From contig JAIKVL010000033.1 of NCBI GenBank assembly GCA_024685775.1, positions 7,908 to 71,907 of the forward strand: a stretch of DNA of 64,000 bases. Reading direction: 5' to 3'. Position numbers and translations under genes: made by a program. Every line of letters starts with the position of its first letter. Position 1 is the stretch's first letter. The notes below the pieces were generated by a model that saw only the letters and a program-made list of their open reading frames with translations, made no database searches and was not told where the DNA came from. Of the stretch, positions 7,314 to 27,014 are shown piece by piece. This DNA is from Clostridia bacterium. Its GTDB lineage: Bacteria; Bacillota; Clostridia; Christensenellales; CAG-1252.

Positions 7314-9824
7314 CTATACGCGCTCGCGTACGGAATACGCGTACACCGCGCTCTTTCCCCCATACGCGATCGTTATCGCGTAATCGCCCGAATTTTCCGT
7401 CGAAAACTCGGGAGCCATATCCGCCGTTACGTTGACATGAGCCGACTCGCCCGACGCATACGACACCGAAAGGACGACGCCCGAAAGCGCGCTTCCCTTT
7501 TCGAACTCGGTCACCGAAGAACCGTCGATCTCGATCCGATCGACGACCGCTTCGCCGCCCGCTGCCGCAAAGGAAACGAGCGCATGGCAGGTTTTGCCCT
7601 TATAGGTGATCTCGACGCGTTCGACGCCGACTCTATCCACGGAGAACGGCGAAATTTCGACGCCCGCGGACGAAAGAGGAATATAGACGCGCCTGAGTCC
7701 GTAGCCGTATTCAAGCGTCAGAGGAGCCTTGGTAAGATCGGGATAGACGCCGACCGAAGAGCGGATCTCCTCGGCGTAGATCGCCGTGATCTCGGTTTTT
7801 TCGGAGACCGGATGCACCGCCACCGCAAAGGACTTTTCAAAGCCCTGATAGCGGAAAAGGACGGAGCTTTGCCCTTCTTCCGCAAAAGGCCCGCCGGAAA
7901 GCATCGAGGCTTCGAGCGGCAGGGTCTGCTCGGAATAACCGTAACCGAGCGTCAAAAGGACGCTTGCTCCCGCGATCGCTTCCGCGGTCAAAGAATCGCC
8001 CGCGAAAAGGACGGGATTGAAATCCAAAAGCAACGCATCCGTCGGTTTGTCTTTATCTTCCGCGGCGATCACGCGGATCGTTGCGGAGCAGGAAACGCCC
8101 TCGTAGGCGATCGTAATCGTCGTCTCGCCCGGCGCGGAAGAATCGAAGCCCGAGATCGCGGCGCTCGAAAGCGGAATCTCGCTCTCCAAGCGATAATTCC
8201 CGCCGTAATAGGCGATCAGCCCCGCTTGCGGGAATTCGGGCGAGCTCCCCGTCAAGACGATCGAGGGGAGATTATAGACGGCGATCGACGTTACGCGCGC
8301 GGCGTATGCGGCGGAAAGGACGTTTACGGTCGATTCGACGGTCTTCCCGAGCAGGCTGACCGTGATCGGGCGCGTCTCGTAATCTCCCGTTACGGGAGAA
8401 GAAGCGTCGAACGCGATCATCGACGATTCGAGCGGGACCGAAGCGGGTTCGAGGTATTTATAGCGGACGAAGACCATCATCCCCTCGACATCCGGTTCTT
8501 CTCCCGCAAGAATGGGCTTGAACGCGCCGCTGAGCTCGATCTCTTCGACGGCGTTTCGCTCTTCGGGATCATAGACCGTTACGGTAAAGAAGCATTCTTC
8601 TTCGCGGAAGACGACCTTTTGCCGCGTTTCGCCCACGGCGGACGTAATATACGTCAAGGTCAGCCTCGGATCGTTCAGCGGGATATTCTCCGTTTCACCG
8701 TCCTCATACGAGATCGCGAGGAAGCCGAATCCATCGAACGCGGAATCCTTCGGGACGGCTTCGGTAAACCCAACCGCCGTCGCTTGCGTTATGCTTCGCA
8801 GGACGACGTAAGAATAAGCGACGGTCTGACCCTGCGCGGTGATCTCCGCTTCGAACCGCCCGGCTTTCGAAGAATCGAACCCGACGACCTCCGCCGCGGT
8901 AACGGGGATATCCGCCGTCGTCCCGTCGTCATACGAGACCCGAATGACGCCGCCTTCGGGGAAGGCGCTCCGCTTTTCGATCTCGCGCGGAAGCAAATTC
9001 TCGACGAGGACCGCCGAGACCGATTTTTTGCCGACCGAATAATAGTAATCGCAAGAATAGGAAGAAAGCGAGACGCGGGCGCGGAAACTTCCGCCGAGAG
9101 CCGTCGAGAAATCGGAGACCATTTCCGCCGTAAGCGCGCGGAGAACGGTCCTGCCGCTCGCGTATTGGAATTTAACGTTCACGCCGCTCGTAAAAAGCGG
9201 TTCGCCGACGGAGTACTCCGACTTCGCGCCCACAAGCGAGACCGACGCGACGGAATCTTCTTTTACCGTCAGCTCGAAAGAATCGGACTCTCCCGCGTAG
9301 GTCACGCTGACGACCTGCGCCCCGAGCCGCATGGGATCGAAGCCGCCGAGCATCGAAGCCGTGATCGGGACGCCCGTTCGGGCGGCGCCGTTTATCATCG
9401 TCGCGCTGAGCGTCGCGCCTTCGGGGAAAGGTTGCCCCTTATAGACGACGCGCGGCAACGTTTCCTCATCCAAGGAGATCGCGGTCGCGACGAGCGGCCA
9501 AATGCGAAGACGCACTTTCGTTTTTTTCCCGGCGAAGGTGATCGTGATCATACAATCGCCTTGCTCGGAACTGTCGAACCCGGAAATCATATCCGCCGTA
9601 ATCGGAGTTACGCCGAAATAATCGGTTTGGTACCCGACTTTCAAAGTCCCCGTCGGATCCAACTCGTCGCCGACGAAATACTCGGTCTTGAAATCATCCA
9701 TAACGGAGAGATACAAAGGTCCGTCCGAAGAGCTTTTTTTACACGCGGAAAAAAGCACGCTCGAAATCAAAGCGAGCGCCGCGATCAAAAAAACAAACGT
9801 CGAAATTTTTATACTCTTCCGCAT
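7314..9824 (-). CDS. Lipoprotein made of bacterial Ig-like (Big_3-like) repeats, paralog of 4627-6789
   Basis: ATG 9824 is preceded by GAAGGA, and the N-terminus MRKSIKISTFVFLIAALALISSVLFSAC has a lipobox. There are eight or so repeats with GFDSS..G motifs (SGFDSSEQGDCMITITFAGK, VGFDSSKAGRFEAEITAQGQ, SGFDSSAPGETTITIAYEGV). The ORF track starts at 9854. Confidence 0.85.
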   Translation of the reverse strand: MRKSIKISTFVFLIAALALISSVLFSACKKSSSDGPLYLSVMDDFKTEYFVGDELDPTGTLKVGYQTDYFGVTPITADMISGFDSSEQGDCMITITFAGKKTKVRLRIWPLVATAISLDEETLPRVVYKGQPFPEGATLSATMINGAARTGVPITASMLGGFDPMRLGAQVVSVTYAGESDSFELTVKEDSVASVSLVGAKSEYSVGEPLFTSGVNVKFQYASGRTVLRALTAEMVSDFSTALGGSFRARVSLSSYSCDYYYSVGKKSVSAVLVENLLPREIEKRSAFPEGGVIRVSYDDGTTADIPVTAAEVVGFDSSKAGRFEAEITAQGQTVAYSYVVLRSITQATAVGFTEAVPKDSAFDGFGFLAISYEDGETENIPLNDPRLTLTYITSAVGETRQKVVFREEECFFTVTVYDPEERNAVEEIELSGAFKPILAGEEPDVEGMMVFVRYKYLEPASVPLESSMIAFDASSPVTGDYETRPITVSLLGKTVESTVNVLSAAYAARVTSIAVYNLPSIVLTGSSPEFPQAGLIAYYGGNYRLESEIPLSSAAISGFDSSAPGETTITIAYEGVSCSATIRVIAAEDKDKPTDALLLDFNPVLFAGDSLTAEAIAGASVLLTLGYGYSEQTLPLEASMLSGGPFAEEGQSSVLFRYQGFEKSFAVAVHPVSEKTEITAIYAEEIRSSVGVYPDLTKAPLTLEYGYGLRRVYIPLSSAGVEISPFSVDRVGVERVEITYKGKTCHALVSFAAAGGEAVVDRIEIDGSSVTEFEKGSALSGVVLSVSYASGESAHVNVTADMAPEFSTENSGDYAITIAYGGKSAVYAYSVRERV

Positions 9825-12347: not shown

Positions 12348-15300
12348 TTACAGCGCGCGGATGCTTTCGACCGGAGATTTCTTCGCCGCGAAGAAGACGG
12401 GAAGGAATGTCGCGAGAACGGAAATGAAGATCGAGACTCCGAAGATCAAAGCGACGTTGATCGGTCCGAAATTCAAAAGCTGCATCGAGACCGCATCGAC
12501 CAGCGACCGATTCAGGAAGAAGCAGACGATAAACGATCCGACCGACGCGAGAATAAAGCAAATAAACGCGATGATGAACGCTTCCGCGTAGAAAATCTTG
12601 AAGACGTCCGATCCTCTTGCGCCGACCGCGCGCAGGATCCCGATATCTTTGCGCTTCGCGGAGATCGAAACCGCAATGAAGTTCAAAAGGAACAGCGCGG
12701 CGATCGCACCGACGACCAATCCGACGATCAGGAAAATTTTCTGCAACATTTTGATCATGGAAAGGAACATTTCGAGTTGCTCGTAGACTCTGCTCTCGAC
12801 GCCGTACTTCACGTTGTCGCCCCCTTTCAGCGCAGAAGTGATCTGCGCTTGCGAATTATCCGTCGGAGAGAAAATCAGATTGTACTTCGCATCGTCCGGG
12901 CGAACGTAATCGGTTTTATACGACATACTCCAATGATAGCCGCCGTCTTGATTCATCGTGGCGTGCGCTTCCATCCAAGACTCGGAAATCGCATAATAAG
13001 CGCCGAGGTTTGCGACCGAAGAATCAAAGTAACCCGCGATTTCAAGCGTTCCCGAGGCGTTATACTTGTCGCGGAACCAAAGCGTTCGTACGAAAGAATC
13101 TACGTCGCACGCAAAAACTTTATCGATCTCATCGACGCTTTTCCCTTTTCCCGCGAGGAACGCGTCGACGGCCGCTTTGTACTCTCTGAATTCATCTTCT
13201 CCGCAACTCCGGTTTTTGAGGGAATCGATAACGTTCCACACGATATCGTTATCAAAGATGGATTCGTTAACGTTCCAATAGTATTCAACGATCAAGCCGT
13301 ATACTGTTTGGAGATAATCCGTCTTGAAATCCGAAGAAACGACGGCTTCGATCGCAGCCCAATCCGCGGCGGTCGGCTCGATCGCGTTTTCCGACATATT
13401 CACATAATATTGAATTTTTTCGTAGGCAGCCGAGAAATTTTCCGTAGAATACCCGTTATTCCGAAGAATGGACGCGGCGTCGTACAAATATTTTCTGTAC
13501 ATAAGCTTTTGAAACCAAGTTTGAACGTATCCGACGTACGGCGCGGGATCGGTCGAATTCCAAAAAGCGTTCGTCAAATCGTCGTTGAAAAGCGCGCGCG
13601 CCTCCGGATCGAAAAGCGCATTATCTCGGCAGCGATTGAAATAGTTTGCGAGCGCGTTTTTCAACATCTCGCGATACGTTGAAAAATTCAGATATATTTT
13701 TCCGTCTTCGAAAGAGGGCTCCGCGATCACGGTTCCGTTCGGCGCATAAAAAACGATTTCGCTTTTATGATTGTTGCAAAAACGATCGGTAAAGATCGTT
13801 TCGCCTGCCCACTGTTCGAGGTCTTGATCGTTTCTTTCATTCGAAAATCGGATGCTTTTGAAATAGCGCCCGTCGAGGTTTCTCATATTACTGTTTTTCG
13901 GCATCCGATCCTTATAGGCGTCGTAAAAAGAAGCGCCGACGAAAATCACGGTATTGAAACTGTTTCTCAAATAATCTTCAAAAGAACGTTTCAAATTTTC
14001 TCGGTTTTCCTCGCTGATGGAATTCGGCGAGGTTTTCAAAACGTCGAACTTGAACGGAATCGATTCGACTGAGACGATGCCTTTGATCGTAAACTTGGAA
14101 TCTTCGCCTCGGAAAACATCCCTGCCGCCCGACAAGCGGATGGTTTTCCCGATCAGATCGGAGACGGAATTCACGTTCGCGCCTTCGGTTTCCGCAAAGA
14201 GTTCGGCGAGATACTCGGGAAGCGCGATCTCGTTTTTCGCCGAAGGATATTCCCCGATCAGGCGATACCCGACGGAAGAAAGATACTCCGCGCCGCAATC
14301 GGAAAAACCGAGAGCCGTCGTAACGGAATAAAACGACCGATGGTCCGAACCGACGGAAACGGGAATATAGCTATCTCCCGAAACGAGATCCAAAGTATAG
14401 CCGGAACGCTCGTAATACGAGTAGTCCGAAAAGTCGAAAACGCCCGCGAATTTGAGCCCGTCTTTGCTCTTCGATCCGACTTCGGACGCGCCGAATAACG
14501 TCGTAACGTAGTCCGTGTCGCGATCCATGACTTCTTCATTCCCGGAAGAATCCATGCGAATTTGTTCACACATCACCTTATAGGATTTGCTCAGCGTGAG
14601 CATAGGATAATTCGCTTCTTTCAGCGCTTTGGAAATCGAATAGTTCGAATCGTACAGCATAAAGGTGGAAGCGACACCGAACATGACGAACGCCGCGACC
14701 GATAAAAGGATCGTAAAGATCAAGCGGATCGGCTTGCTTTTGAGACCGCTCGCGCCCATCTTGATCGCGTGCCCCATCGGCAGGCGCGACTTGATAAACT
14801 TCGTCTCTTTTCCGTTATACGCTTTCGTTTCTACGGCGTCGGTCTGCTTAAAGGATTCTTTCGAGCCGTCGTCATTGATCTTGCAGGCGCGCTTTACGTC
14901 TTTGAGCTCGCGCTCCCCTGCCGCGATGATCGCTTCGCCGCCTTTCTTTTTCAAAACTTCCGCGATCTTTTTAATATCCGCATCCGTGATCGCCGCGCCG
15001 TCCTTGACACGGATCGTGTCGTCCATAACGACGACGTTCTCGTCGGAATTTTCGGGTTCGATATAGGTTTTGCTGACGTCCGAAAGGATCTTTCCGTCTT
15101 TCAGTTCGATGATCCTGTCGCCGTAAAACTCCGCGAACTCCCGATCGTGAGAAACGACGATGACGAGTTTGGTTTCGGACAGCTTCTTCAAAGTGTCCAA
15201 GACCTGCTTTCCCGTGTTGGAATCGAGCGCGCCCGTCGGTTCGTCCGCCATAATGATCTCGGGCTGTTTGATAAGAGCGCGCGCGATCGCGACCCTCTGC

Positions 15301-15737
15301 TTCTGACCGCCGGACAAGGTGTTCGGTTTTCTCTTCCCGTACCCCTTCAAATCCACCTGCTCCAAAAGATCGGCGACCGCCTTTTTATCGTTCGGTTTGT
15401 TTTGAAGTTGCAGAGCGAGCGCGATATTCTGCTCGATCGTAAACTCGTTCAAAATGTTGTACTCTTGGAAGACGAATCCGATAAAGGTATTCCGATAGCT
15501 GTCGAAATCCGCTCCGGAGAATTCCTTACTGCTTCGCCCTTTCACGAGGATCTCGCCGCCGTCCGGCTTATCCAAGCCGCCCGCGACGTTCAAAAGCGTC
15601 GATTTACCCGAACCGCTCTTACCGAGCAAAAAGACCATTCCTTTTTCGGGGAACGTTACGGAAACGTCGTCGAGCGCGCGCACTTCGACGCCGCCCTTTC
15701 CTGCGTAGACTTTGGTCAGGTTTTTAACCTCTAACAT
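12348..15737 (-). CDS. Fused ABC transporter: N-terminal ATPase plus FtsX/MacB-type permease with a very large extracytoplasmic domain
   Basis: This is a 1129-aa ORF. It has Walker A GKSGSGKST, signature LSGGQKQR and Walker B IIMADEPT. A TM lies near aa 335-360, about 640 aa of soluble region follows, and three C-terminal TMs are typical of FtsX (…GILRAVGARGSDVFKIF…). Confidence 0.85.
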   Translation of the reverse strand: MLEVKNLTKVYAGKGGVEVRALDDVSVTFPEKGMVFLLGKSGSGKSTLLNVAGGLDKPDGGEILVKGRSSKEFSGADFDSYRNTFIGFVFQEYNILNEFTIEQNIALALQLQNKPNDKKAVADLLEQVDLKGYGKRKPNTLSGGQKQRVAIARALIKQPEIIMADEPTGALDSNTGKQVLDTLKKLSETKLVIVVSHDREFAEFYGDRIIELKDGKILSDVSKTYIEPENSDENVVVMDDTIRVKDGAAITDADIKKIAEVLKKKGGEAIIAAGERELKDVKRACKINDDGSKESFKQTDAVETKAYNGKETKFIKSRLPMGHAIKMGASGLKSKPIRLIFTILLSVAAFVMFGVASTFMLYDSNYSISKALKEANYPMLTLSKSYKVMCEQIRMDSSGNEEVMDRDTDYVTTLFGASEVGSKSKDGLKFAGVFDFSDYSYYERSGYTLDLVSGDSYIPVSVGSDHRSFYSVTTALGFSDCGAEYLSSVGYRLIGEYPSAKNEIALPEYLAELFAETEGANVNSVSDLIGKTIRLSGGRDVFRGEDSKFTIKGIVSVESIPFKFDVLKTSPNSISEENRENLKRSFEDYLRNSFNTVIFVGASFYDAYKDRMPKNSNMRNLDGRYFKSIRFSNERNDQDLEQWAGETIFTDRFCNNHKSEIVFYAPNGTVIAEPSFEDGKIYLNFSTYREMLKNALANYFNRCRDNALFDPEARALFNDDLTNAFWNSTDPAPYVGYVQTWFQKLMYRKYLYDAASILRNNGYSTENFSAAYEKIQYYVNMSENAIEPTAADWAAIEAVVSSDFKTDYLQTVYGLIVEYYWNVNESIFDNDIVWNVIDSLKNRSCGEDEFREYKAAVDAFLAGKGKSVDEIDKVFACDVDSFVRTLWFRDKYNASGTLEIAGYFDSSVANLGAYYAISESWMEAHATMNQDGGYHWSMSYKTDYVRPDDAKYNLIFSPTDNSQAQITSALKGGDNVKYGVESRVYEQLEMFLSMIKMLQKIFLIVGLVVGAIAALFLLNFIAVSISAKRKDIGILRAVGARGSDVFKIFYAEAFIIAFICFILASVGSFIVCFFLNRSLVDAVSMQLLNFGPINVALIFGVSIFISVLATFLPVFFAAKKSPVESIRAL

Positions 15738-15765: not shown

Positions 15766-15794
15766 ATTATATATGATTCTATTCCTTATATCAA
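15766..15794 (-). promoter_or_regulatory. Sigma-70-type promoter for the ABC gene
   Basis: On the minus strand it reads TTGATA (15794-15789), a 17 nt spacer, then TATAAT (15771-15766). The site lies 29 nt upstream of ATG 15737. Confidence 0.6.
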
Positions 15795-15804
15795 TAGGAA
15801 AAAT

Positions 15805-15829
15805 AAAAAAAAGGGAAGAACCCTTCCCC
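15805..15829 (-). terminator. Intrinsic terminator closing the six-gene McrB-like/SipW operon
   Basis: On the minus strand it reads GGGAAG-GGTT-CTTCCC followed by T8. It begins 7 nt after the stop codon at 15836-15838. Confidence 0.8.
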
Positions 15830-15835
15830 TTTTCG

Positions 15836-16588
15836 TTACTTTCTGCGTTTTCTCTGCGCTTCTTCCAGGCGCTTTTTGCTCGCGATATACTCCTCGACGG
15901 CTTTTCTTTTGATCTCGTCCTCTCTCTGCTTGATGAGTTCTTCGGGAGTGAGCTGCTCTTTCTTCAATTCCGCGTCGTCCTTCATCTTGCAAGCGCGCAC
16001 GAAATTGATGATTTGGATGACGAGCAAGCAAAAGAGCGGGACGAAGACGATCAATCCGAAGCCGAGCTTACTGCGGAACGCATTGTAGACGAAGGTCATG
16101 ACGACGGACGTCCGAACGTACTTCCCGATGACGTCGGTATACTCGATCGGTTTATCCGCGATCCCGTAATTCGCGTCGCCGCAGGTCGTCAGTTTCCCGT
16201 CCTCGACGCCTTCGCTTATGATCCTATGCGTAACGATCTTGCCCGAGAGCTCGCCTTTCCCGACGAAGGTAACGATATCTCCCTTTTTGAGTTCGTTTTC
16301 GGAACCCACTTTTTTAACGATAATGACGTCGCCGACGTCCAAAGTCGGGCGCATGGATCCCGAAATAACGGTATAGACCCCGTAACCGAAGAGATTCGGA
16401 CGCTTCGCCGTCTTCACCTGAATGAGCGTAAAGATCACGAACCCGAGCAAAAGAAGCAGAAACACCGTTACGACGGTGCTTACGATCTTTTGGGCGACGG
16501 ACGGCTTTTTTCCGTTCGTTTCTTGTTTTTTAACGCTTTCTTTTTCTTTCATAGTCGCGTAAAGAGACGGCGAACCGTCTCTTCTCAA
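15836..16588 (-). CDS. SipW-type (ER/archaeal-type) signal peptidase I, copy 2, with a charged C-terminal tail
   Basis: It has a TM (VVTVFLLLLLGFVIFTLI), catalytic-region motifs ISGSMRPTLDVGDVIIV, VTHRII and CGDANYGIAD, a second TM, and a K/E-rich tail containing EIKRKAVEEYI. The start is ambiguous: TTG 16588 lies 3 nt after the upstream stop, and ATG 16552 is the alternative. Confidence 0.8.
   Translation of the reverse strand: MRRDGSPSLYATMKEKESVKKQETNGKKPSVAQKIVSTVVTVFLLLLLGFVIFTLIQVKTAKRPNLFGYGVYTVISGSMRPTLDVGDVIIVKKVGSENELKKGDIVTFVGKGELSGKIVTHRIISEGVEDGKLTTCGDANYGIADKPIEYTDVIGKYVRTSVVMTFVYNAFRSKLGFGLIVFVPLFCLLVIQIINFVRACKMKDDAELKKEQLTPEELIKQREDEIKRKAVEEYIASKKRLEEAQRKRRK
16563..16582 (-). 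other. Perfect 8-bp hairpin at the junction between the McrC-like gene and sipW copy 2
   Basis: AGAGACGG-(4 nt loop)-CCGTCTCT lies between the stop at 16592 and ATG 16552. No clear U-tract follows. Confidence 0.5.
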
Positions 16589-16591
16589 TGC

Positions 16592-19228
16592 TTATTTCTT
16601 TTTATCTTTCTTTTTGTCTTTCTCTTTTTTATCCCCGATCACGTCGTGAACGTTCTGCGGCGTTATGGAAAGAGGCGTGTAAGAACGCGGGATAAACGTG
16701 CGGGCGCGGCCGCCGTCCGAGGGATTCGGAGTGACTTCCGAGATCTTCGGCTCTTCTCTCTCGATCGAGTTTTCTTCAAACGAACGCGCATCTTCGGAAG
16801 GCGACGTCGGCGCAAACGGTTTCGGCGCCAAAATATCCTTCGCGGACGGCGTGTAGGGGTTGGGCGCGGCGGGCTTCTTCGATTTGGGCGAGGTCGGAGC
16901 GAAGCTGGTGGCGCCTTGCGCCTTGTTCTCCTCTTCGAGTCTCTTCAACTTCTCTTTGAATTCCGCCTTCTCTTGCGCTTTCTTCGCCTTTTCCTCTTCC
17001 TTCTTCGCTCTCGCTTCTTCTTTCTTTCTGAGCTTGAAGGCTTTTCTCTCCTCTTTCGAAGTCGCGACGTTCTCGCGATCTTCCTCGGGGGTCAGCTTCA
17101 TCGCGGACACGTCCTTGTTGATGAGCTTCTCGTCCACGTTCAATTCGTCGATAAAGCTCCAATCGTCCTCCGCGGTCGGGAGCTCTTCTTCCTCTTCTTC
17201 TTGGGGCGCTTCTTCGGGTTCGGGCTCGGGCTCTTCCTCGGGAACGAAGTCGAAGACGACCTCTTCCGCGTTCTGACCGAGCTCCGTATAGCCGATATCG
17301 CCGACTTCGGGCGTAGGCGCGACCGCCTCTTCCTTCTCTTTTTCAAGCTCTTCCGGCGTAAGTTTATCGTTCAGAATCTCGTTGATCTGTTCCTTTCCGT
17401 AGGTCAGGACGTTGACGTCTTCCGCCTCCATCGCGTCGGCGCGCTCTTCTTCGGTCGCGGTCACGCTGTCGAAGTTAATGAGCTGCGCAAGCTCTTCCAT
17501 ATCGATAATCGCCTGCTTTTGCTGGGCTTCCATATCGGCGTAGTGCGTGCTGATGAGCTCCTGCATCGTGTGCTCTTGCTCGCGGCGCATTTCCTCGATC
17601 CTGCGGATCTCTTTTTTACGAAGCAATAACAGCGCTTCGCCTTCGATCGGAGCGATATAGGTCATCGTCTTTTCGCGTTCGAGCTGCTCGGCGAGAAGTT
17701 GCTTTTCGGTCGCCATACGCTCTTCTTCCGAGCGTTGGATCGCAAGCAGTCTTTCCTTTTCCGCGGCGAGGCGCTTCTCCATTTCCGCTTCTTCTTTGCA
17801 GAGGCGCAAACGCATGAGTCTTTCTTCCGCGCGAACGATGCGATCGTGCATCTCTTTCTTTTCGCGTTTGATGCGCTCTTGTTCTTCCTTCTGCGCGAGC
17901 TTCATCGCCTTTTCCGCTTCTTTCTCCGCGCGGATACGCTCTCTTTCTTCGGCTTTGCGGCGTTTTTCTGCGTCCTTCGCGTCCTTCTCCGCCTGCCTGA
18001 GCGCTTCGAGTTTAAGCTCGGCTTCCTCTTTGAGCTGTTGCTTCAACAAGGCTTTTTGCCGCGCGCTGTCTTCCTTGGCGGTGTTGATCTTATACTGGCG
18101 AATGACGCGATCCAAAGCCGCGTTCATCTTGCGAACGTCGTCCATTGGGACTTCGCGCTCGCCCGGAACCGTCGTGTACAAACGGCGGATCTCGTGAAGA
18201 TCCATATGGAGCTGCGGGAAATCGTCCGGGACGAAATCGTCGATATTCTTGGTCAGGTATTCGTTCTCGACGTTCTTTTCTTTTTCGAGATCTTTCTCTT
18301 CCACGAGCCCGCCTTCGGCTTTCGCCGCCATCGACTCGATGATAAGAGTGTTCAAATAAATAAGGTCGCGATACTTTTCGGAAACGGAAGGCGAAAGATC
18401 GCGCGTCTCCGTAACCGTTTCGACTTCGAAACCGATCTTGTTATACGATTCGATGAACTGCCAAAGGACCAGAGCTTTTTTGAAGTTCGGGTCTTTCAAG
18501 ATGACGTTCGTACGGGTGATCGGCGGGCGGACCAGCGCGCAACTGACCATTTCCTTCGCGAACGGGCTCGCAAGGAAGCTCGAAACGATGCTGTTGATCC
18601 TTTCCACGCGTTGAACCAACGTTCGGTTGTCGTCCGCGCCCATTAAGTTTTCCACCGGCATATTCGCGGTGGTGGACATTGTGTAGCTGATCGAATTATC
18701 ATTTTTCAGTCCGAAATCGGAAGTAACGTTGACGACGATCTGGTCGCTGTTCGCGTTCGCCTGCTTGATCAAATTAAAGCGGCGGGTAATGAAATCCTTC
18801 GTCTTCAAAAGGAGGGTATAGATAAAACGGTTCTCGTAAATCTCGTACGACTCTTCTTTCGACGTGTTCAGGATTTTACTCGGAATGACCATTCCGTCTT
18901 TGGTAACGGAAGAAATGTAGTTCGTGTGCTGCGCAAGGTGCTTGACGGACTCGACGGAAATACTCCTCGCGAGAGAGATATCGACGATATCTTCTTCGAC
19001 GACGATGAACTTACGCGGGTTACGAACGATCGTGTCGAGCGCGACGATACAATCTTCGAGGGTGTCGATCCAACTCTCGTCGAAGATCTGCTTTTGGAAG
19101 CGCTGCGACACTTGAAAACTATTCTTACCCTGCGCGATATAATCCGAATAATCGGAATAAAAGTCCTCCTGTTTGAGGAGCGTACTCAGGTAATATAGAT
19201 ATTCTTCGTACCTTTTCTTGTCTGCCAT
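16592..19228 (-). CDS. McrC/DUF2357-like N-domain protein with a ~200-aa coiled coil and a Pro/Lys-rich tail; no nuclease motif seen
   Basis: This is an 878-aa ORF starting 20 nt after the McrB-like gene. The N-domain (aa 1-305) has SYEIYENRFIYTLLL and ITRTNVILKDPNFKKALVLWQFI, which resemble the ENRF and YxxLxxW segments of McrC-N/DUF2357 proteins. That judgement is by eye only. Residues 385-580 form an E/K/R heptad-like coiled coil. The rest is acidic, then P/K-rich, and ends in KKEKDKKKDKKK. I found no D...(D/E)xK nuclease core. Confidence 0.55.
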   Translation of the reverse strand: MADKKRYEEYLYYLSTLLKQEDFYSDYSDYIAQGKNSFQVSQRFQKQIFDESWIDTLEDCIVALDTIVRNPRKFIVVEEDIVDISLARSISVESVKHLAQHTNYISSVTKDGMVIPSKILNTSKEESYEIYENRFIYTLLLKTKDFITRRFNLIKQANANSDQIVVNVTSDFGLKNDNSISYTMSTTANMPVENLMGADDNRTLVQRVERINSIVSSFLASPFAKEMVSCALVRPPITRTNVILKDPNFKKALVLWQFIESYNKIGFEVETVTETRDLSPSVSEKYRDLIYLNTLIIESMAAKAEGGLVEEKDLEKEKNVENEYLTKNIDDFVPDDFPQLHMDLHEIRRLYTTVPGEREVPMDDVRKMNAALDRVIRQYKINTAKEDSARQKALLKQQLKEEAELKLEALRQAEKDAKDAEKRRKAEERERIRAEKEAEKAMKLAQKEEQERIKREKKEMHDRIVRAEERLMRLRLCKEEAEMEKRLAAEKERLLAIQRSEEERMATEKQLLAEQLEREKTMTYIAPIEGEALLLLRKKEIRRIEEMRREQEHTMQELISTHYADMEAQQKQAIIDMEELAQLINFDSVTATEEERADAMEAEDVNVLTYGKEQINEILNDKLTPEELEKEKEEAVAPTPEVGDIGYTELGQNAEEVVFDFVPEEEPEPEPEEAPQEEEEEELPTAEDDWSFIDELNVDEKLINKDVSAMKLTPEEDRENVATSKEERKAFKLRKKEEARAKKEEEKAKKAQEKAEFKEKLKRLEEENKAQGATSFAPTSPKSKKPAAPNPYTPSAKDILAPKPFAPTSPSEDARSFEENSIEREEPKISEVTPNPSDGGRARTFIPRSYTPLSITPQNVHDVIGDKKEKDKKKDKKK

Positions 19229-19248: not shown

Positions 19249-20829
19249 TTAGAAGAGTTTCTTCAACCTTTCGAGGTATTCCTTACATTCGGTCATGTTT
19301 TCCTCTCCGAAGTGATCGGAAAGGTATTGGATATAGTCGTCAACCTCGTCGCGGATGTAGGCAAGGTTCAAGGATTCGAATTTACGAAGGATCTTGTTAC
19401 AGAGGACGTAGTCCAAGCCGTCGATCTCCGTTCCGCCGCAAGCGACGTACACGGGGACGAATTCTCTTAATTGCTTAACGATACGGTTACCGAACGCCAA
19501 GCGGAAATGCTCGATAACGTAATCATCCATCTCTTCGAATTTTCTCAGGTTCTCTTCGCTGACCTTATGCTCTTCCTGCGCTTTTGCAAACAGGGATTCG
19601 AGATACTTATAAGACAGCGGCATCATATTCGTCAAAGGCGCGTCGAAAGGCTTCGCCTTGCTGTTGATGTTGATCGGCATACCACGGTCGTAAACCTTAT
19701 CGGAGATCGCGAACGTCGAGTCATCGTTGTTCGCCGTTCCGACGAACCACATGTTTTCCGGCAAACGGAAACGACCTTTTTCAACGTGCTTCGGGTCGGA
19801 AGGCCAACCGCTCGGAACGAGGTCGACGATCCATTGATCACGCGACGGCATTTCGAGAATGGACAACATTTCCGCGAAGTAGTACTCGACACGCGCGATG
19901 TTCATTTCGTCGAGGACGGTCAGATACATATCTTCGTTATAGGTCGCGTCGTACATCGCTTTCAGCGTTTCCGTTTCGTTGAACCTCTTGGTAAATTCGT
20001 TGAAGTATCCGAAGATTTCGGTTCTATCACGCCAAGACGGCTGAACGGAAGCGATCGTCGTCGGGTTGTCGATAAAGTGACCGATACATTCGGGAAGTGA
20101 GGTTTTACCGGTACCGGATATACCTTGCAGGATGATGAGCCTCGTCGTTGCAAGACTTGCGAAGAACAATCGAATGATCTTGGGTTCGTAATAAAGCTTA
20201 CGCCACGGTCTGTCGGGGTTATTCGCCGCGTAATTTCGGAAGGTGTCGCAAAGCTCCGAAAGCGTAAAATCCTTTCGGAATTCGGTATGACGCTGCGAGC
20301 CTTCTTCCGCGTATTGGTTATCGACTTCCGTCAGCTTGTAGAAACGGCTCTCGCCTTCCTTTTTCGCGCTGGACGTGTCTTCGCCTTCGTTTCCTTCCAA
20401 AACGTCGTAGCCTTGATAGCCGATCTTCAAACCGAGGATGCGGTCTTTTTCTTTCGTCAATTTAACGATCTGACCTTTTAAGTTTCCGATCTCGTCCACG
20501 AGGTCTTGATTCAAAACCCTCGAACCGAAGAGTCTTTTGAAGAAACGGACGAGGAAGTAAGCGCCGACGACGACGATCGCAAGAAGAGCGAGAACGACGA
20601 GGATAATGATCACCCAAGCGCCGATCCATTGCCCGGTACTCATCTGCTTCATCGCTTGGAATTTTTCTACGACCGCAATATAGCTGTCTATCGCGAACAA
20701 TTGACGGAACGCGCCGAAGAAACCGCCGTACCAATTAAAACCGGAAATACCGTGCGGTTGCGTATAGAAAAAGCCAAGAAATCCAAAGAAGAATACTTGC
20801 AAAAATTCTTTTATAAAATCAGTAAACAT
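19249..20829 (-). CDS. Membrane-anchored McrB-type AAA+ (AAA_5) GTPase
   Basis: This is a 526-aa ORF with a TM helix WIGAWVIIILVVLALLAIVVVGAYFLVRFF (aa 67-95) and a short coiled coil. Walker A is ILQGISGTGKTS. SVQPSWRDRTEIFGYFNEF compares with McrB vqFHpsYsYeDFveG. Walker B and following, LTVLDEMNIARVEYYFAEMLSILE, compares with lIiDEiNRanlskifGEl..llE. RLPENMWFVGTANNDDSTFAISDKVYDRG compares with f.iP.Nl.iiGTmNtaDrs...lD.AlrRRF and includes the NxxD GTP motif. Confidence 0.75.
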   Translation of the reverse strand: MFTDFIKEFLQVFFFGFLGFFYTQPHGISGFNWYGGFFGAFRQLFAIDSYIAVVEKFQAMKQMSTGQWIGAWVIIILVVLALLAIVVVGAYFLVRFFKRLFGSRVLNQDLVDEIGNLKGQIVKLTKEKDRILGLKIGYQGYDVLEGNEGEDTSSAKKEGESRFYKLTEVDNQYAEEGSQRHTEFRKDFTLSELCDTFRNYAANNPDRPWRKLYYEPKIIRLFFASLATTRLIILQGISGTGKTSLPECIGHFIDNPTTIASVQPSWRDRTEIFGYFNEFTKRFNETETLKAMYDATYNEDMYLTVLDEMNIARVEYYFAEMLSILEMPSRDQWIVDLVPSGWPSDPKHVEKGRFRLPENMWFVGTANNDDSTFAISDKVYDRGMPININSKAKPFDAPLTNMMPLSYKYLESLFAKAQEEHKVSEENLRKFEEMDDYVIEHFRLAFGNRIVKQLREFVPVYVACGGTEIDGLDYVLCNKILRKFESLNLAYIRDEVDDYIQYLSDHFGEENMTECKEYLERLKKLF

Positions 20830-20906: not shown

Positions 20907-21806
20907 TTACGCTTTTGTCTCTTCTCCTTTTTGATCGGAAGCGCCGCCATCTCCCGCAGCGGGGCTGAGCCCCTGACTCTTCAAATACTCTTCGATCGCC
21001 TTGCGCTTGATCGCTTCTTCGTCGATCGATGCGAGAGCCGCCTGCTTCGCGCTTTCCGCCGCCGCCGCTTTCGCCTTCTTCATCTTGTTTTCGACGACGA
21101 TCTGCGCGACCAAATAAATATTATAGATCAGCAACAATCCGAGAGGAATGATGATGACGTAGATGAAATGGTATCCGTCGCGGATCCAAGTCAACGCCGA
21201 ACCGAGTCCGTTGATATGGAACGCATAAACGGCGAGGATATCGCCCGCGAGCTTATCCGCTTCGTCCGGGAGCGGGTTGGCGTCGCCCTGCGTCCTGTAC
21301 TTCTTGACGCCGTCGACGTCTTTGACTTCGATAATTCTGTGCGTTACGAGAATGACTTGACGGCTGTTGTCTTCAAGCATCTTGAACGTCACGATGTCGC
21401 CGACTTTCAGATCGTTCCCGCCTTTTTTCGGGCTCGTCGCGAAAACGAGCGCGCCTTCGGGGAAACTGTCCTTTTTATCCCCGTCCATTGATCCCGTCAA
21501 AACGGGAAGTAACTTCAACCCGACGGGAGAGACCTTGTCGCCCGATTGCGGGTTCAGCATAACGACCAAACAAATGACGATCGCGAGGACGACGAAAGCG
21601 ATCTGCACGGCGAGAACAACCGCGTTCGCGATCCTTTTGCCTTTGCTCATCGGTTTCTTTTCCCTTTCGTCGATTTTTTTCGCCGCAGATTCGACTGCGG
21701 GAGCCGCCTCGACCGTTTCCGCATTTTCTTCGACCGCTTCGGTGACGGGCGTCGCCGCGGTTTCTTCCGTTTCGGTTTCGTTACTCAATTTCTTGTCTTT
21801 TTCCAT
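20907..21806 (-). CDS. SipW-type (ER/archaeal-type) signal peptidase I, copy 1, with an acidic N-extension and a charged C-terminal tail
   Basis: ATG 21806 has GAGGAG 11 nt upstream; the ORF track starts at 21941 inside the previous gene. It has a TM (AVVLAVQIAFVVLAIVICLVVML), the motifs VLTGSM, VGDIVTF, VTHRII and QGDANPLPDE, a second TM, and a tail containing AIKRKAIEEYL. Confidence 0.8.
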   Translation of the reverse strand: MEKDKKLSNETETEETAATPVTEAVEENAETVEAAPAVESAAKKIDEREKKPMSKGKRIANAVVLAVQIAFVVLAIVICLVVMLNPQSGDKVSPVGLKLLPVLTGSMDGDKKDSFPEGALVFATSPKKGGNDLKVGDIVTFKMLEDNSRQVILVTHRIIEVKDVDGVKKYRTQGDANPLPDEADKLAGDILAVYAFHINGLGSALTWIRDGYHFIYVIIIPLGLLLIYNIYLVAQIVVENKMKKAKAAAAESAKQAALASIDEEAIKRKAIEEYLKSQGLSPAAGDGGASDQKGEETKA

Positions 21807-21823
21807 TTCAGTTTGTTCTCCTC

Positions 21824-22777
21824 TTAGCTTTGGGTGACGAATTCGACCGCAAGTTTGACTTGCCCGCCGAGAATACCTCTTTCGCTGTCTACCGTGCTGG
21901 ACGCGTCGCCGATACACTGCGGATCCTCGCCTTCCAGCCAAATAATGATCGTGTACTTAATGATCTCGCCGGGGTTTAAGGGGAAGAGTTCGCTGTTCAG
22001 GACGTAGCCGCCGCCTTGGAAAGGCTTCGCAAGCCAGACGCCGTCTTCCGCGATCGTTCCTTCCTCAAACGTGAATCCGTTGAAAACGTCGATCGTCTGC
22101 GGTTTGTAATTCTTCCCGGGGACGACTTCTTCCGGAATCACGTTTCCTCCTTCGTCGAGAAGGTTTTTGCCTCTTTGATCGGTCTGCGGCGCGGAGTAGA
22201 CCGAGATCGTTCCGTAGTTCTCGTCCGTCAGATCGGAATCCTTGATGACGAGGACGCGGATCGCTTTATCCATATTCCGCATCGCGCGTTCGATCGAGAT
22301 CATTTCCCGATAGCCGACCGCGCCGGTTCCGCTGTTTTTCAAATAGAACGACGTCGCGATAAAGAAATCCTGCGTGCCTTCGCCCTTGTAGGGACCGTTC
22401 GACTCGTAAATATCTTTAATCTTTCCGTCGATATAGTTGCACAAAGTACTGTTGTCCATATTCTTCGGCGCGGCGACGTCCAAAACGCTGGTCGGGTTCG
22501 TAAACTCGAAGTCCTTGGAAAGAGAGAGCCACGAAGTACCCGTCTGCGAAACGGTAACGCGGAAGTTGTTGTTATCCACGAAACGCATAATCGCGTACGT
22601 TATGCCCGCGAGAAGGGTGACGATAAGCAAGAAGAGCAGAAGAATGATAATGACCGCTCTTCTGCGCGCTTGCCGACGGACGCGTTTGTTTTTGATAACG
22701 TACTCGTTCTCCGCCGCCAATTGCTCCTGAATCAGTTGATCGGGAGTTTTTTCAACGTCACTCTTTGTTTTCGCCAT
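21824..22777 (-). CDS. TasA/camelysin-like (Peptidase_M73-like) secreted beta-rich protein with a signal-anchor
   Basis: This is a 317-aa ORF. A 40-aa charged N-extension precedes the TM/signal segment AVIIILLLFLLIVTLLAGITYAIMRF, which compares with the SipW-type signal ..GGTyAyF. FYLKNSGTGAVGYREMISIE compares with TasA F.F.N.GSL. The C-terminal WLEGEDPQC...GGQVKLAVEFVTQ compares with TasA yQGNSIKLQFSFEATQ. The assignment is by motif only. Confidence 0.5.
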   Translation of the reverse strand: MAKTKSDVEKTPDQLIQEQLAAENEYVIKNKRVRRQARRRAVIIILLLFLLIVTLLAGITYAIMRFVDNNNFRVTVSQTGTSWLSLSKDFEFTNPTSVLDVAAPKNMDNSTLCNYIDGKIKDIYESNGPYKGEGTQDFFIATSFYLKNSGTGAVGYREMISIERAMRNMDKAIRVLVIKDSDLTDENYGTISVYSAPQTDQRGKNLLDEGGNVIPEEVVPGKNYKPQTIDVFNGFTFEEGTIAEDGVWLAKPFQGGGYVLNSELFPLNPGEIIKYTIIIWLEGEDPQCIGDASSTVDSERGILGGQVKLAVEFVTQS

Positions 22778-25767: not shown

Positions 25768-25879
25768 GTTGCTAATTCCTGTAAAAATCCAGCTTTTTCG
25801 GGACATTTCGACTTATGTTAGAGCAAATTTACAAGAATGTATAAATGCGGTTACAAAATGACGGAAAAACTCACCCCTA

Positions 25880-25908
25880 TTGAATTTTCTTCTTTTATTT
25901 GGTATAAT
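25880..25908 (+). promoter_or_regulatory. Sigma-70-type promoter for the 25933 membrane-protein gene
   Basis: It reads TTGAAT (25880-25885), a 17 nt spacer, then TATAAT (25903-25908). The TGG preceding the -10 makes it an extended -10. Confidence 0.6.
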
Positions 25909-25932
25909 ATTTTTCACAAAGGAGGTACGTTT

Positions 25933-26424
25933 ATGGACAATCCCATCGGAGAAAAAGAAGCGCTCGCCGCCGAAGCGGAAACGAAAAACGCGGAAGTTGT
26001 CGCAGATCCGATCGAAGAGCCGACCCCGCAAAATCTTCTTTCCGAAAACGCGCTTTGCGCCGTTAAAAAGGGACCGAAAAAAGCAAGTTACGTCTTTTTC
26101 GTGCTTGCCGTTTTGACCTTTATTCCGTTCATTTTTCTGACGATGCCGTTCTTGGGCGCCTTCTTTGACAGCTCGCCCGAGGACCTCGGCGAAGCGCTCG
26201 GAAAAGTCTTCGGGCTGCTCTTCGTGATCATCTTTATGGCCATCACGGGGATCCCGAATTTCATCTTTTCTTTGCTCTCCACGATCTTTTTCGGGACGGC
26301 GATCGGAAAGACGGATCCCAAGCGCAAGGTGAAAACCATCGTCTTTTTCGCGATCTCGCTCGCGCTTTTGATCGCCGTCGTTACGATCGCGCTGATCAGT
26401 TTCATCGTCATAAAAAGGAACTGA
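25933..26424 (+). CDS. Four-TM membrane protein, unknown function
   Basis: ATG 25933 is preceded by AAGGAGGT. The translation is MDNPIGEKEALAAEAETKNAE... followed by four hydrophobic helices. The ORF track starts earlier, at 25837. Confidence 0.65.
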   Translation: MDNPIGEKEALAAEAETKNAEVVADPIEEPTPQNLLSENALCAVKKGPKKASYVFFVLAVLTFIPFIFLTMPFLGAFFDSSPEDLGEALGKVFGLLFVIIFMAITGIPNFIFSLLSTIFFGTAIGKTDPKRKVKTIVFFAISLALLIAVVTIALISFIVIKRN

Positions 26425-26451: not shown

Positions 26452-26489
26452 AAAAAAATCGCTCGCAATATGCGAGCGATTTTTCTTTG
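26452..26489. terminator. Bidirectional intrinsic terminator (end of the ribosomal alpha operon and of the 25933 gene)
   Basis: It has a 10-bp perfect stem ATCGCTCGCA-ATA-TGCGAGCGAT, flanked by A7 on the left and T-rich sequence on the right. Confidence 0.85.
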
Positions 26490-26504: not shown

Positions 26505-27014
26505 TCAAAGCATCTCGATGATCGCCATTTCCGCGGCGTCGCCTTTTCTTTGACCGAGCCTAAGGATGCGGGTATATCCGCCGCCTTGGGTCTGTTTGTC
26601 GTTGCGCTCTTTATACTTCGGAGCGTACTCGTTGAAGATCTTCTCGATCAAAGGATGATTGATGTCCTTCGTCCTCGCAGCGTACTTGCTCTTGCTCTCT
26701 TTCTCGCCCTTCTTCTCTTGAATATCGTAAAGCTCAGCCATCAAACGACGCCTTGCCGCGAGCTTTTTCGGACCGTCGTTCGTAAATTTGACGGACACTT
26801 TCTCGTCTTTGAGGTTGACTTTTTCTTTGACAACTTCAACGGTGTCTTGATAGGTGTTGATAGCGAGAGTGAGAAGTTTTTCAGCCATACGACTTACCTC
26901 TTTGGCGCGGTCGAAGGTGATCTCGATCTTTCCGTACCACAAAAGGTCGGAAACTTCGTTCTTCAACATCGCCATACGTTGGTCTGTCGGTCTTCCTAAT
27001 TTTCTTTGATTCAT
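26505..27014 (-). CDS. rplQ: 50S ribosomal protein L17 (with an internal insertion)
   Basis: MNQRKLGRPTDQRMAMLKN...GGYTRILRLGQRKGDAAEMAIIE. It is the last gene of the alpha operon. Confidence 0.95.
   Translation of the reverse strand: MNQRKLGRPTDQRMAMLKNEVSDLLWYGKIEITFDRAKEVSRMAEKLLTLAINTYQDTVEVVKEKVNLKDEKVSVKFTNDGPKKLAARRRLMAELYDIQEKKGEKESKSKYAARTKDINHPLIEKIFNEYAPKYKERNDKQTQGGGYTRILRLGQRKGDAAEMAIIEML

Follow-up and report, generated by a model that had tools for sequence, protein, structure and literature searches.

The closest described counterpart of the system reported here is CoCoPALM, a large clade of NxD-motif McrB GTPases named by Bell, Makarova, Wolf and Koonin (eLife 2024, PMC11090510, section 7), in which an N-terminal fusion of a transmembrane (TM) segment and a coiled coil, with stated homology to FtsB, is accompanied by signal-peptidase neighbours and a coiled-coil McrC homologue. 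That paper gives the clade one paragraph and defers its analysis, and our literature search found no other paper using the term. We analyzed a stretch of 64,000 nucleotides (nt) from a Clostridia bacterium (Christensenellales, CAG-1252; assembly GCA_024685775.1, contig JAIKVL010000033.1, forward-strand positions 7,908 to 71,907), hereafter the window, whose minus strand carries a six-gene operon encoding, in this order, an EAL protein, a protein designated p317, a SipW-type signal peptidase, an McrB-like GTPase of 526 amino acids (aa), its McrC-like partner and a second SipW. With CoCoPALM this system shares the NxD-branch GTPase, the TM and coiled-coil fusion, a DUF2357 McrC homologue with a charged helical extension and the adjacent signal-peptidase genes, and no architectural difference was found, so that the architecture is already named, but uncharacterized. 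New with respect to the CoCoPALM paper are the intact SipW-type peptidases, a candidate with the TasA fold, a degenerate EAL protein and a housekeeping-level constraint on the GTPase. We propose, with moderate confidence, that this CoCoPALM-type McrBC module has been exapted as a GTP motor or switch at the cytoplasmic face of the membrane for SipW-dependent fibre biogenesis.

A phmmer search of the GTPase against all PDB sequences returned E. coli McrB chains as the sole significant matches (E-values from 1.8e-6 for 6hz4 to 4.1e-6, over aa 218-408), and the ungapped alignment with E. coli McrB spans Walker A, the loop at the QSYSYEDF position, Walker B and the sensor-1 region. The NCBIfam McrB equivalog model was matched with an E-value of 2.9e-6 and 26.3 bits, far under its cutoff of 637, whereas the PADLOC candidate-defence model PDC-M26A was matched at 2.6e-37. 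More than 8000 homologues were detected; the best 120 listed are 51-91% identical to the window protein, most of them full-length. An AlphaFold2 model built on an alignment of 21 sequences (mean predicted local distance difference test score, pLDDT, 71.7) was submitted to Foldseek, which returned generic AAA+ proteins as top matches (Lon, MCM, RavA, dynein, BrxL), with McrB at rank 21; the model used has low confidence in its most conserved loops. As Foldseek does not discriminate among AAA+ folds, a fold-level proof of McrB identity was rejected, and this identity rests on sequence and the partner gene. An initial annotation of this DNA had recognized McrB-family landmarks in the core, which is indeed McrB-like by sequence; Pfam AAA_5 itself scored below its gathering score (17.6 bits versus 22; E = 0.004).

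All motifs quoted for the GTPase in that annotation were found at their positions when checked on the 526-aa translation (Table 1), and Walker A GISGTGKT and Walker B VLDEMN show no variation among 21 homologues. On the other hand, its description of an "NxxD GTP-specificity pattern" had to be corrected. We searched aa 200-410 of the GTPase against 1.84 billion representative proteins, obtaining 7759 matches at E-values up to 1e-3 and 632 at up to 1e-30, and read sensor 1 in the best 150, of which 134 had a readable motif. Of these, 134/134 have D at the third position, and the fourth varies (D in 95, E in 33, Q in 3, A in 2 and G in 1). The clade signature is NxD[D/E], the NxD branch as in Bell et al. 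2024, and the NNDD of the window protein satisfies NxxD only through a coincidental D at the fourth position. There is good support for identifying the protein as an McrB homologue of the CoCoPALM type, with an AAA+ GTPase core of the NxD branch.

The most conserved stretch of the protein is aa 263-285 (QPSWRDRTEIFGYFNEFTKRFNE, nt 19975-20043, minus strand), in which nearly all positions are invariant and the AlphaFold2 pLDDT is below 50; this loop could be mobile, lining a pore or an interface, and need the oligomer or the partner to become ordered. Beyond the AAA+ core, predicted as an alpha/beta fold, the model continues into a helical C-terminal domain.

With E. coli McrBC (6hz4, 6ut6, 7vsr) the window system shares the AAA+ core, Walker A and B, the loop at the QSYSYEDF position, the sensor-1 Asn, the candidate arginine finger (aligned without a gap) and a partner with an McrC N-domain, and differs by its NxD signature, its membrane anchor, the lack of a DNA-binding N-domain and the lack of a PD-(D/E)xK nuclease in the partner. 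With the CoCoNuT systems (PADLOC candidate PDC-M26; the coiled-coil McrB-like CnuB, and CnuC, with nucleases) it shares the AAA+ core clade at 45-50% core identity, a DUF2357 partner and the motifs GxSGTGK[ST], LDEMN[IL][AS]R[IV]EYYFA and GTANxD[DE]STF. The CoCoNuT-type relatives, however, have long soluble N-terminal regions without TM helices and, in the one case inspected, neighbour a PLD nuclease within a defence island, whereas the window protein has a membrane anchor and its operon yielded no nuclease.

Table 1. Positions of the operon features in the window, listed from the last operon gene upstream.
Feature	Position (nt)	Strand	Basis or remark
Intrinsic-terminator-like hairpin	15807..15834		Minus strand; 12-bp stem and T-run directly after the SipW stop; closes the operon
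SipW-type signal peptidase I, downstream copy	15836..16588	-	TIGR02228, 79.2 bits (cutoff 51.85); last operon gene
McrC-like partner, 878 aa	16592..19228	-	No nuclease, no TM; start 20 nt after the GTPase stop
DUF2357 (McrC N-domain) of partner, aa 58-163	18740-19057	-	Pfam
McrB-like NxD-branch AAA+ GTPase with N-terminal membrane anchor, 526 aa	19249..20829	-	Open reading frame; PDB, NCBIfam and PADLOC matches
C-terminal all-helical domain, aa 407-526	19252..19611	-	AlphaFold2 helices 407-525; very highly conserved, many invariant alignment columns
AAA+ core, aa 216-400	19630..20184	-	Motifs, PDB alignment, homologue alignment
Candidate arginine finger, R382		-	Within AAA+ core; Arg conserved at this position
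Sensor 1, N367-N-D369-D370	19720-19731	-	Within GTANNDDS, aa 364-371
Motif IARVEYYFAEMLSILE, aa 311-326		-	After Walker B
Walker B LDEMN, aa 306-310	19900-19914	-	VLDEMN, aa 305-310
McrB-signature loop VQPSWRDRTEIFGYF, aa 262-276	20002-20046	-	
Walker A GISGTGKT, aa 236-243	20101-20124	-	
Disordered acidic linker, aa 138-163	20341-20418	-	AlphaFold2
Short coiled-coil-like helix, aa 105-137	20419..20517	-	AlphaFold2 helix 108-137
Main TM helix, aa 67-95	20545..20631	-	Hydropathy to 3.31; AlphaFold2 helix 65-101; C-terminal side predicted cytoplasmic
Aromatic/Gly-rich N-terminal segment, aa 2-45	20695..20826	-	Conserved in alignment of 21 homologues; AlphaFold2 helices 2-18, 37-44
SipW-type (endoplasmic reticulum/archaeal-type) signal peptidase I, upstream copy	20907..21941	-	TIGR02228, 66.6 bits (cutoff 51.85)
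p317, membrane-anchored beta-sandwich protein	21824..22777	-	AlphaFold2, Foldseek; candidate TasA-like fibre or anchor subunit
EAL protein, 937 aa	22758..25571	-	Pfam EAL, E = 2.6e-19; C-terminal degenerate EAL domain; first operon gene

Among the 134 representatives of the core clade, 56 have no TM helix (typically 700-870 aa), 38 have one or two as in the window (about 500 aa) and 36 have three or more (550-840 aa). The context of one relative without TM helices (737 aa, 46% core identity; loci L082/L083, 8001-10214) was inspected and proved to be a typical defence island that holds, besides a DUF2357 partner, a weak PLD-nuclease match, a large helicase/STAND protein, a VWA/kinase/PP2C trio, helix-turn-helix regulators and a DNA methylase; this form is likely the ancestral state of the clade. 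The architecture with three or more TM helices includes proteins with four or five predicted N-terminal ones (P0360, P0361, P0364, P0367 and others), and the one context inspected for it, that of a five-TM example (locus L081, 960-3074), contains a 509-aa unannotated gene, DUF3800 and polysaccharide-synthesis genes, and no SipW.

The initial annotation had further described a membrane anchor, with one clear TM helix and a short coiled coil, in place of the DNA-reading N-domain, and this description held: residues 1-160 gave no match to a DNA-binding or modification-reading domain and consist instead of the anchor, the coiled coil and the disordered linker, an arrangement found in thousands of homologues. 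In the 19-residue Kyte-Doolittle scan of the whole protein the mean peaks at aa 69-87, all windows from 62-80 to 83-101 exceed 1.6, and no second segment does so outside aa 62-101. The AlphaFold2 model contains helices at aa 2-18, 37-44, 47-59, 65-101 (37 residues, the TM helix) and 108-137 ahead of the linker, with pLDDT below 50 for aa 130-158, and the coiled-coil helix displays the 3-4 hydrophobic spacing L109/I113/L116/I120/L123/I130, as read from the sequence. The positively charged residues K and R are in excess on the C-terminal side of the TM helix (mean 4.27 in the 15 flanking residues, versus 1.11 on the N-terminal side, across 116 homologues), which places the coiled coil and the nucleoside triphosphatase (NTPase) of the GTPase in the cytoplasm.

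The segment preceding the TM helix, described by the same annotation as hydrophobic and aromatic/Gly-rich over aa 8-45, is indeed aromatic/Gly-rich and conserved, but its hydrophobicity in the window protein is borderline (maximum 1.32 in the same scan). In 32/116 homologues the value reaches 1.6 or more, suggesting that the anchor may be a two-helix hairpin, with this segment as second membrane helix, instead of one helix; in the window protein two forms are conceivable, a peripheral helix and a weak first membrane helix. Because the first 60 residues align across homologues, this N-terminus is translated and conserved. A later start at M60 or M63, which would drop the segment, was rejected on account of that alignment and of the good Shine-Dalgarno-like sequence (GGAAAGGAAGGG) upstream of the ATG at 20829.

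The partner was recognized through its first 343 aa, which matched Pfam DUF2357 with an E-value of 5e-8 (32.9 bits; gathering score 23.3), a model that also matches 18/26 partner homologues, and source records label these homologues "DUF2357 domain-containing protein"; the whole-length partner gave no match because of its biased tail. A partner-family profile run against PDB sequences hit coiled-coil or charged proteins alone and no McrC, so that the assignment as McrC-type is based on Pfam DUF2357. Beyond this domain no match, to nucleases or otherwise, was obtained with Pfam, NCBIfam and PADLOC. Residues 341-640 form a charged helical region of about 300 aa (67% E/K/R/Q/A/L), after which the tail turns acidic and then P/S/T-rich; judged from composition and profiles, weak and non-significant matches of the E/K/R-rich region (E-values 0.35-10) include long helical or coiled-coil proteins. 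The hydropathy maximum of the partner is 1.25, without any hydrophobic segment, and the protein is accordingly placed in the cytoplasm. As the DUF2357 partner lacks the nuclease and the GTPase lacks the DNA reader, the pair is an McrBC derivative lacking both.

The C-terminal 100 aa or so of the partner (16592-16900, minus strand) carry two FAPTSP repeats in the P/S/T-rich region and a terminal KKEKDKKKDKKK run, and the length of the tail is highly variable among homologues (total 540-940 aa). Antisense to the E/K-rich tail, the plus strand contains open reading frames (15773-17629, 618 aa; 17699-18646; others) with low-complexity, R/F/L-rich translations. We took them for artefacts arising from the low complexity and purine richness of the coding strand, and rejected them as genes.

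Both SipW copies retain the catalytic Ser/His/Asp motifs (TGSM, VTHRI and GDAN upstream; SGSM, VTHRI and GDAN downstream) and look catalytically intact by this measure. The true start of the upstream copy is likely the ATG at 21806. Intergenic gaps within the operon are of 3-77 nt where the genes do not overlap, and Pfam and PADLOC scans detected no nuclease or toxin domain among the operon proteins. The annotation's suggestion of a function at the membrane and not on bulk DNA fits this context of a partner without nuclease, SipW peptidases and a beta-sandwich protein that is secreted or anchored.

Other TM-fused McrB homologues and their neighbours were searched for, as the initial annotation had recommended. 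Many were found: in a scan of one genome per species at least 588 stretches encode a relative of the GTPase, in Christensenellales (Christensenellaceae), Oscillospiraceae, Acutalibacteraceae, Ruminococcus and some Bacilli/Anaeroplasmataceae, and 80 loci were retrieved for context counts. SipW genes occur in 73/80 of them (113 copies), McrC-like genes in 70/80 (70 copies, following the McrB-like gene), p317-family genes in 59/80 (152 copies) and EAL genes in 42/80 (42 copies, preceding p317), almost all on the same strand as the GTPase gene, and most loci keep both the gene order and the partners unchanged. In the closest and second closest loci the GTPase is 92% and 88% identical to that of the window, compared to 89% and 78% for ribosomal protein L17, 58% and 65% for p317 and 55% and 58% for SipW. 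As the identity of the GTPase equals or exceeds that of L17 while p317 and SipW stand at 55-65%, the cytoplasmic engine is under very strong constraint and the exported parts evolve fast, as expected of a surface structure with its motor and not of a defence island.

These data bear directly on the possibility that the system still serves anti-phage defence, with a membrane-sited CoCoNuT/McrBC-like sensor that would detect infection at the envelope (for example phage DNA entry or pilus-dependent adsorption) and would trigger an effector through SipW, p317 or the EAL protein. The McrBC family as a whole is ancestrally defensive (PMC11090510), the core matches PDC-M26A, and close relatives at 45-50% core identity share a defence island with genes for a helicase, a PLD nuclease and a methylase. 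We nevertheless consider this role improbable, given an operon in which the scans found neither nuclease nor toxin domain, gene order and partners that are fixed in most loci, and a conservation at or above that of L17 (52-92% full-length identity across Christensenellaceae, Oscillospiraceae, Acutalibacteraceae and some Bacilli) that is unusual for defence genes, which evolve fast and move horizontally.

The same housekeeping-level conservation could also be that of a cell-envelope or division factor, in which an FtsB/DivIC-like anchor and a TolA-like partner would constitute a GTP-dependent envelope-integrity or septal machine, SipW and p317 being loosely related to it. Consistent with such a machine are the FtsB homology reported by Bell et al. 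for the N-terminal fusion (PMC11090510), the NCBI name of one partner homologue, "cell envelope integrity protein TolA", and the position of the operon just downstream of rplQ, which the window shares with its two closest relatives (L001, L011) and not with more distant ones. The TolA label, however, reflects the E/K-rich low-complexity tail alone, and a single-sequence scan of GTPase aa 1-177 against Pfam, with E-values up to 10, gave noise alone and no DivIC/FtsB match. The coiled coil of FtsB is extracytoplasmic, whereas that of the GTPase continues into the NTPase and is hence cytoplasmic, giving the opposite topology. Across the 80 loci no division or cell-wall genes are conserved nearby, while SipW and p317 are. 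An envelope or division role is in our view quite unlikely.

The candidate substrate of the module is p317, for which a limited number of homologues (79) could be detected. It starts with a conserved basic cytoplasmic tail (aa 1-39, ending in YVIKNKRVRRQARRR before the TM; consensus ending EYVIKNKRVRRQxRRR), followed by a TM helix (aa 40-63), at whose outer face the sequence AGITYA↓IMRFVDN parallels GGGTWA↓AFNDI of TasA, T-Y-A↓I being the putative SipW site. The AlphaFold2 model of p317 is a beta-sandwich (pLDDT 80.4), for which Foldseek ranked the TasA fibre 8aur first (E = 2.5e-4, prob 0.99) and also matched the archaeal TasA-like bundling pilus 7ueg (prob 0.94). Related loci usually add one to six p317 paralogues whose signal peptides are short, of the classical kind, and end in T[FY]AW[FY], and ends of this type, which resemble the GTWAAF of TasA, occur in 134 proteins from 61/81 loci, among them adhesin-like proteins of 1200-2600 aa. 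The operons TapA-SipW-TasA of B. subtilis and SipW-BsaA of C. perfringens likewise place a dedicated SipW of the endoplasmic reticulum type beside secreted beta-sandwich proteins; they contain no cytoplasmic NTPase, whereas the subunit of the window has a long conserved cytoplasmic tail and insignificant sequence similarity to TasA.

Very large adhesin-like proteins are encoded in related loci just downstream of McrC, either of 2000-2600 aa with M26_N repeats or of 1200-1800 aa with BspA-type leucine-rich repeats (LRR_5), and these secreted proteins may be fibre tip adhesins. Those of the M26_N type, typically 2000-2600 aa, follow the McrC-like gene in 19/80 loci of the Acutalibacteraceae/Ruminococcus type (for example L041, 14069-21535; L044, L048, L053, L072, L078). 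In loci of the Oscillospiraceae type (L025/L027/L028/L057), three p317 paralogues and the second SipW are followed by proteins of 1100-1800 aa with YAWF-type signals, one of which was scanned and has BspA-type leucine-rich repeats.

The long tail of p317 could also suit an AAA+ extraction or quality-control machine that removes or recycles cleaved signal-anchor remnants, or gates SipW cleavage, and does not power fibre growth. An unusually long, conserved, basic cytoplasmic n-region on a protein with a TasA-like T-Y-A↓I site at the outer TM end would offer a substrate for such a machine, and the low-confidence prediction of the GTPase loop aa 263-285 is as expected for a mobile substrate-contacting element. 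This proposal is pure inference, though, since McrB-family rings are not known to thread polypeptides, and in many related loci most subunits have short-tailed classical signal peptides; we regard it as unlikely.

The first gene of the operon encodes the EAL protein, which is 86-87% conserved in the closest relatives. Compared with the EAL domain of Bd1971, the Asn, Glu, second Asp, Lys and first Glu of the catalytic/metal-binding set are replaced, so the protein is, as far as these residues indicate, probably not a phosphodiesterase, and a role as receptor of cyclic di-GMP (c-di-GMP) is a reasonable guess. Its N-terminal region of about 700 aa is acidic and repetitive, with two similar repeats of about 130 aa (aa ~320-450 and 480-610), the second of which matches PADLOC PDC-S18 (E = 3e-6). 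In most relatives the EAL gene encodes a stand-alone protein of about 250-270 aa.

Taken together, the system probably serves surface-fibre biogenesis rather than DNA restriction. In the motor or switch that we propose, the GTPase, whose catalytic part sits at the cytoplasmic face of the membrane, would form a hexamer as in McrBC, into which the DUF2357 domain of the partner would plug to stimulate GTP hydrolysis. The module would act on membrane-embedded protein substrates without cleaving DNA, as a GTP-powered motor or checkpoint coupling the cytoplasm to the export, SipW cleavage, and donor-strand polymerization or anchoring of TasA-like fibre or adhesin subunits. The conserved basic tail of p317 would be the most plausible handle for a cytoplasmic machine, and the degenerate EAL protein a plausible c-di-GMP-responsive input. 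So viewed, the module would be a housekeeping-grade exaptation of a defence system and not a restriction enzyme. Type IV pilus and archaellum assembly offers an analogy, having the same logic of membrane-anchored pre-subunits, a dedicated signal peptidase and a hexameric NTPase at the cytoplasmic face, although the families are unrelated (McrB-type AAA+ versus PilB/FlaI, SipW versus PilD/FlaK, TasA-like versus type IV pilin).

Several points weigh against this proposal. The TasA-like assignment of p317 comes from one fold search with low TM-scores (0.25-0.38); the profile of p317 aligned insignificantly with TasA by hhalign (prob 10%; TasA sequence verified against 8aur), and no Pfam or NCBIfam match to TasA/camelysin (Peptidase_M73) was obtained for p317 or for seven paralogues or neighbours scanned. 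With low TM-scores and insignificant sequence similarity, a TasA-like fibre subunit is a plausible, not a proven, identity for the modelled p317. The window contains no subunit of the classical T[FY]AWF kind, the operon having the long-tailed p317 alone. The TasA fibres of B. subtilis are not known to require a cytoplasmic NTPase for their assembly, and a motor is thus not obviously needed. For the use of GTP and not ATP, for the hexamer and for its stimulation by the partner, we extrapolated from what E. coli McrBC does. Finally, CoCoPALM is a kind of system that has been named and never studied experimentally, and the FtsB homology stated for it (PMC11090510) was not reproduced by single-sequence Pfam scanning, although this does not reject it.

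A bolder form of the proposal, which we find possible but doubtful, is that McrBC has been domesticated as the cytoplasmic engine of an unrecognized pilus pathway of gut Clostridia, in which the membrane-anchored NxD hexamer, activated by the McrC-like partner, would grip p317-type tails and couple GTP hydrolysis to SipW cleavage and donor-strand polymerization under c-di-GMP control by the EAL protein. If true, this would be the first NTP-driven machine for TasA-type fibres and the first non-defence, protein-directed function in the McrBC family.

Regarding the surroundings of the operon, a gene directly downstream (12348-15737, minus strand) encodes a 1129-aa fusion of an ABC ATPase, an extracytoplasmic region of about 750 aa and an FtsX-type permease. 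It has a promoter-like site of its own (15794-15766, matching at 11/12 positions) and a terminator (12333-12303), and ABC/FtsX genes recur near some related loci. On the other side, a 195-aa multi-TM open reading frame (25837-26424, plus strand), followed by a perfect 14-bp hairpin terminator (26454-26484), lies between rplQ (26505-27014, minus strand) and the operon.

The clade to which the window protein belongs has shed the DNA reader and the nuclease of McrBC, a textbook restriction machine, and has gained a membrane anchor. Hundreds of Bacillota species from gut and rumen conserve it at the level of a ribosomal protein, which suggests that its role is a core cellular one. Most likely it helps to build the surface fibres or adhesins by which Christensenellales, Oscillospirales and their relatives colonize hosts and form biofilms. 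The operon model, a candidate substrate (p317 and its paralogues) and a candidate regulator (the degenerate EAL protein) make this function testable, and CoCoPALM would stand as a clear case in which housekeeping has taken over a defence system.

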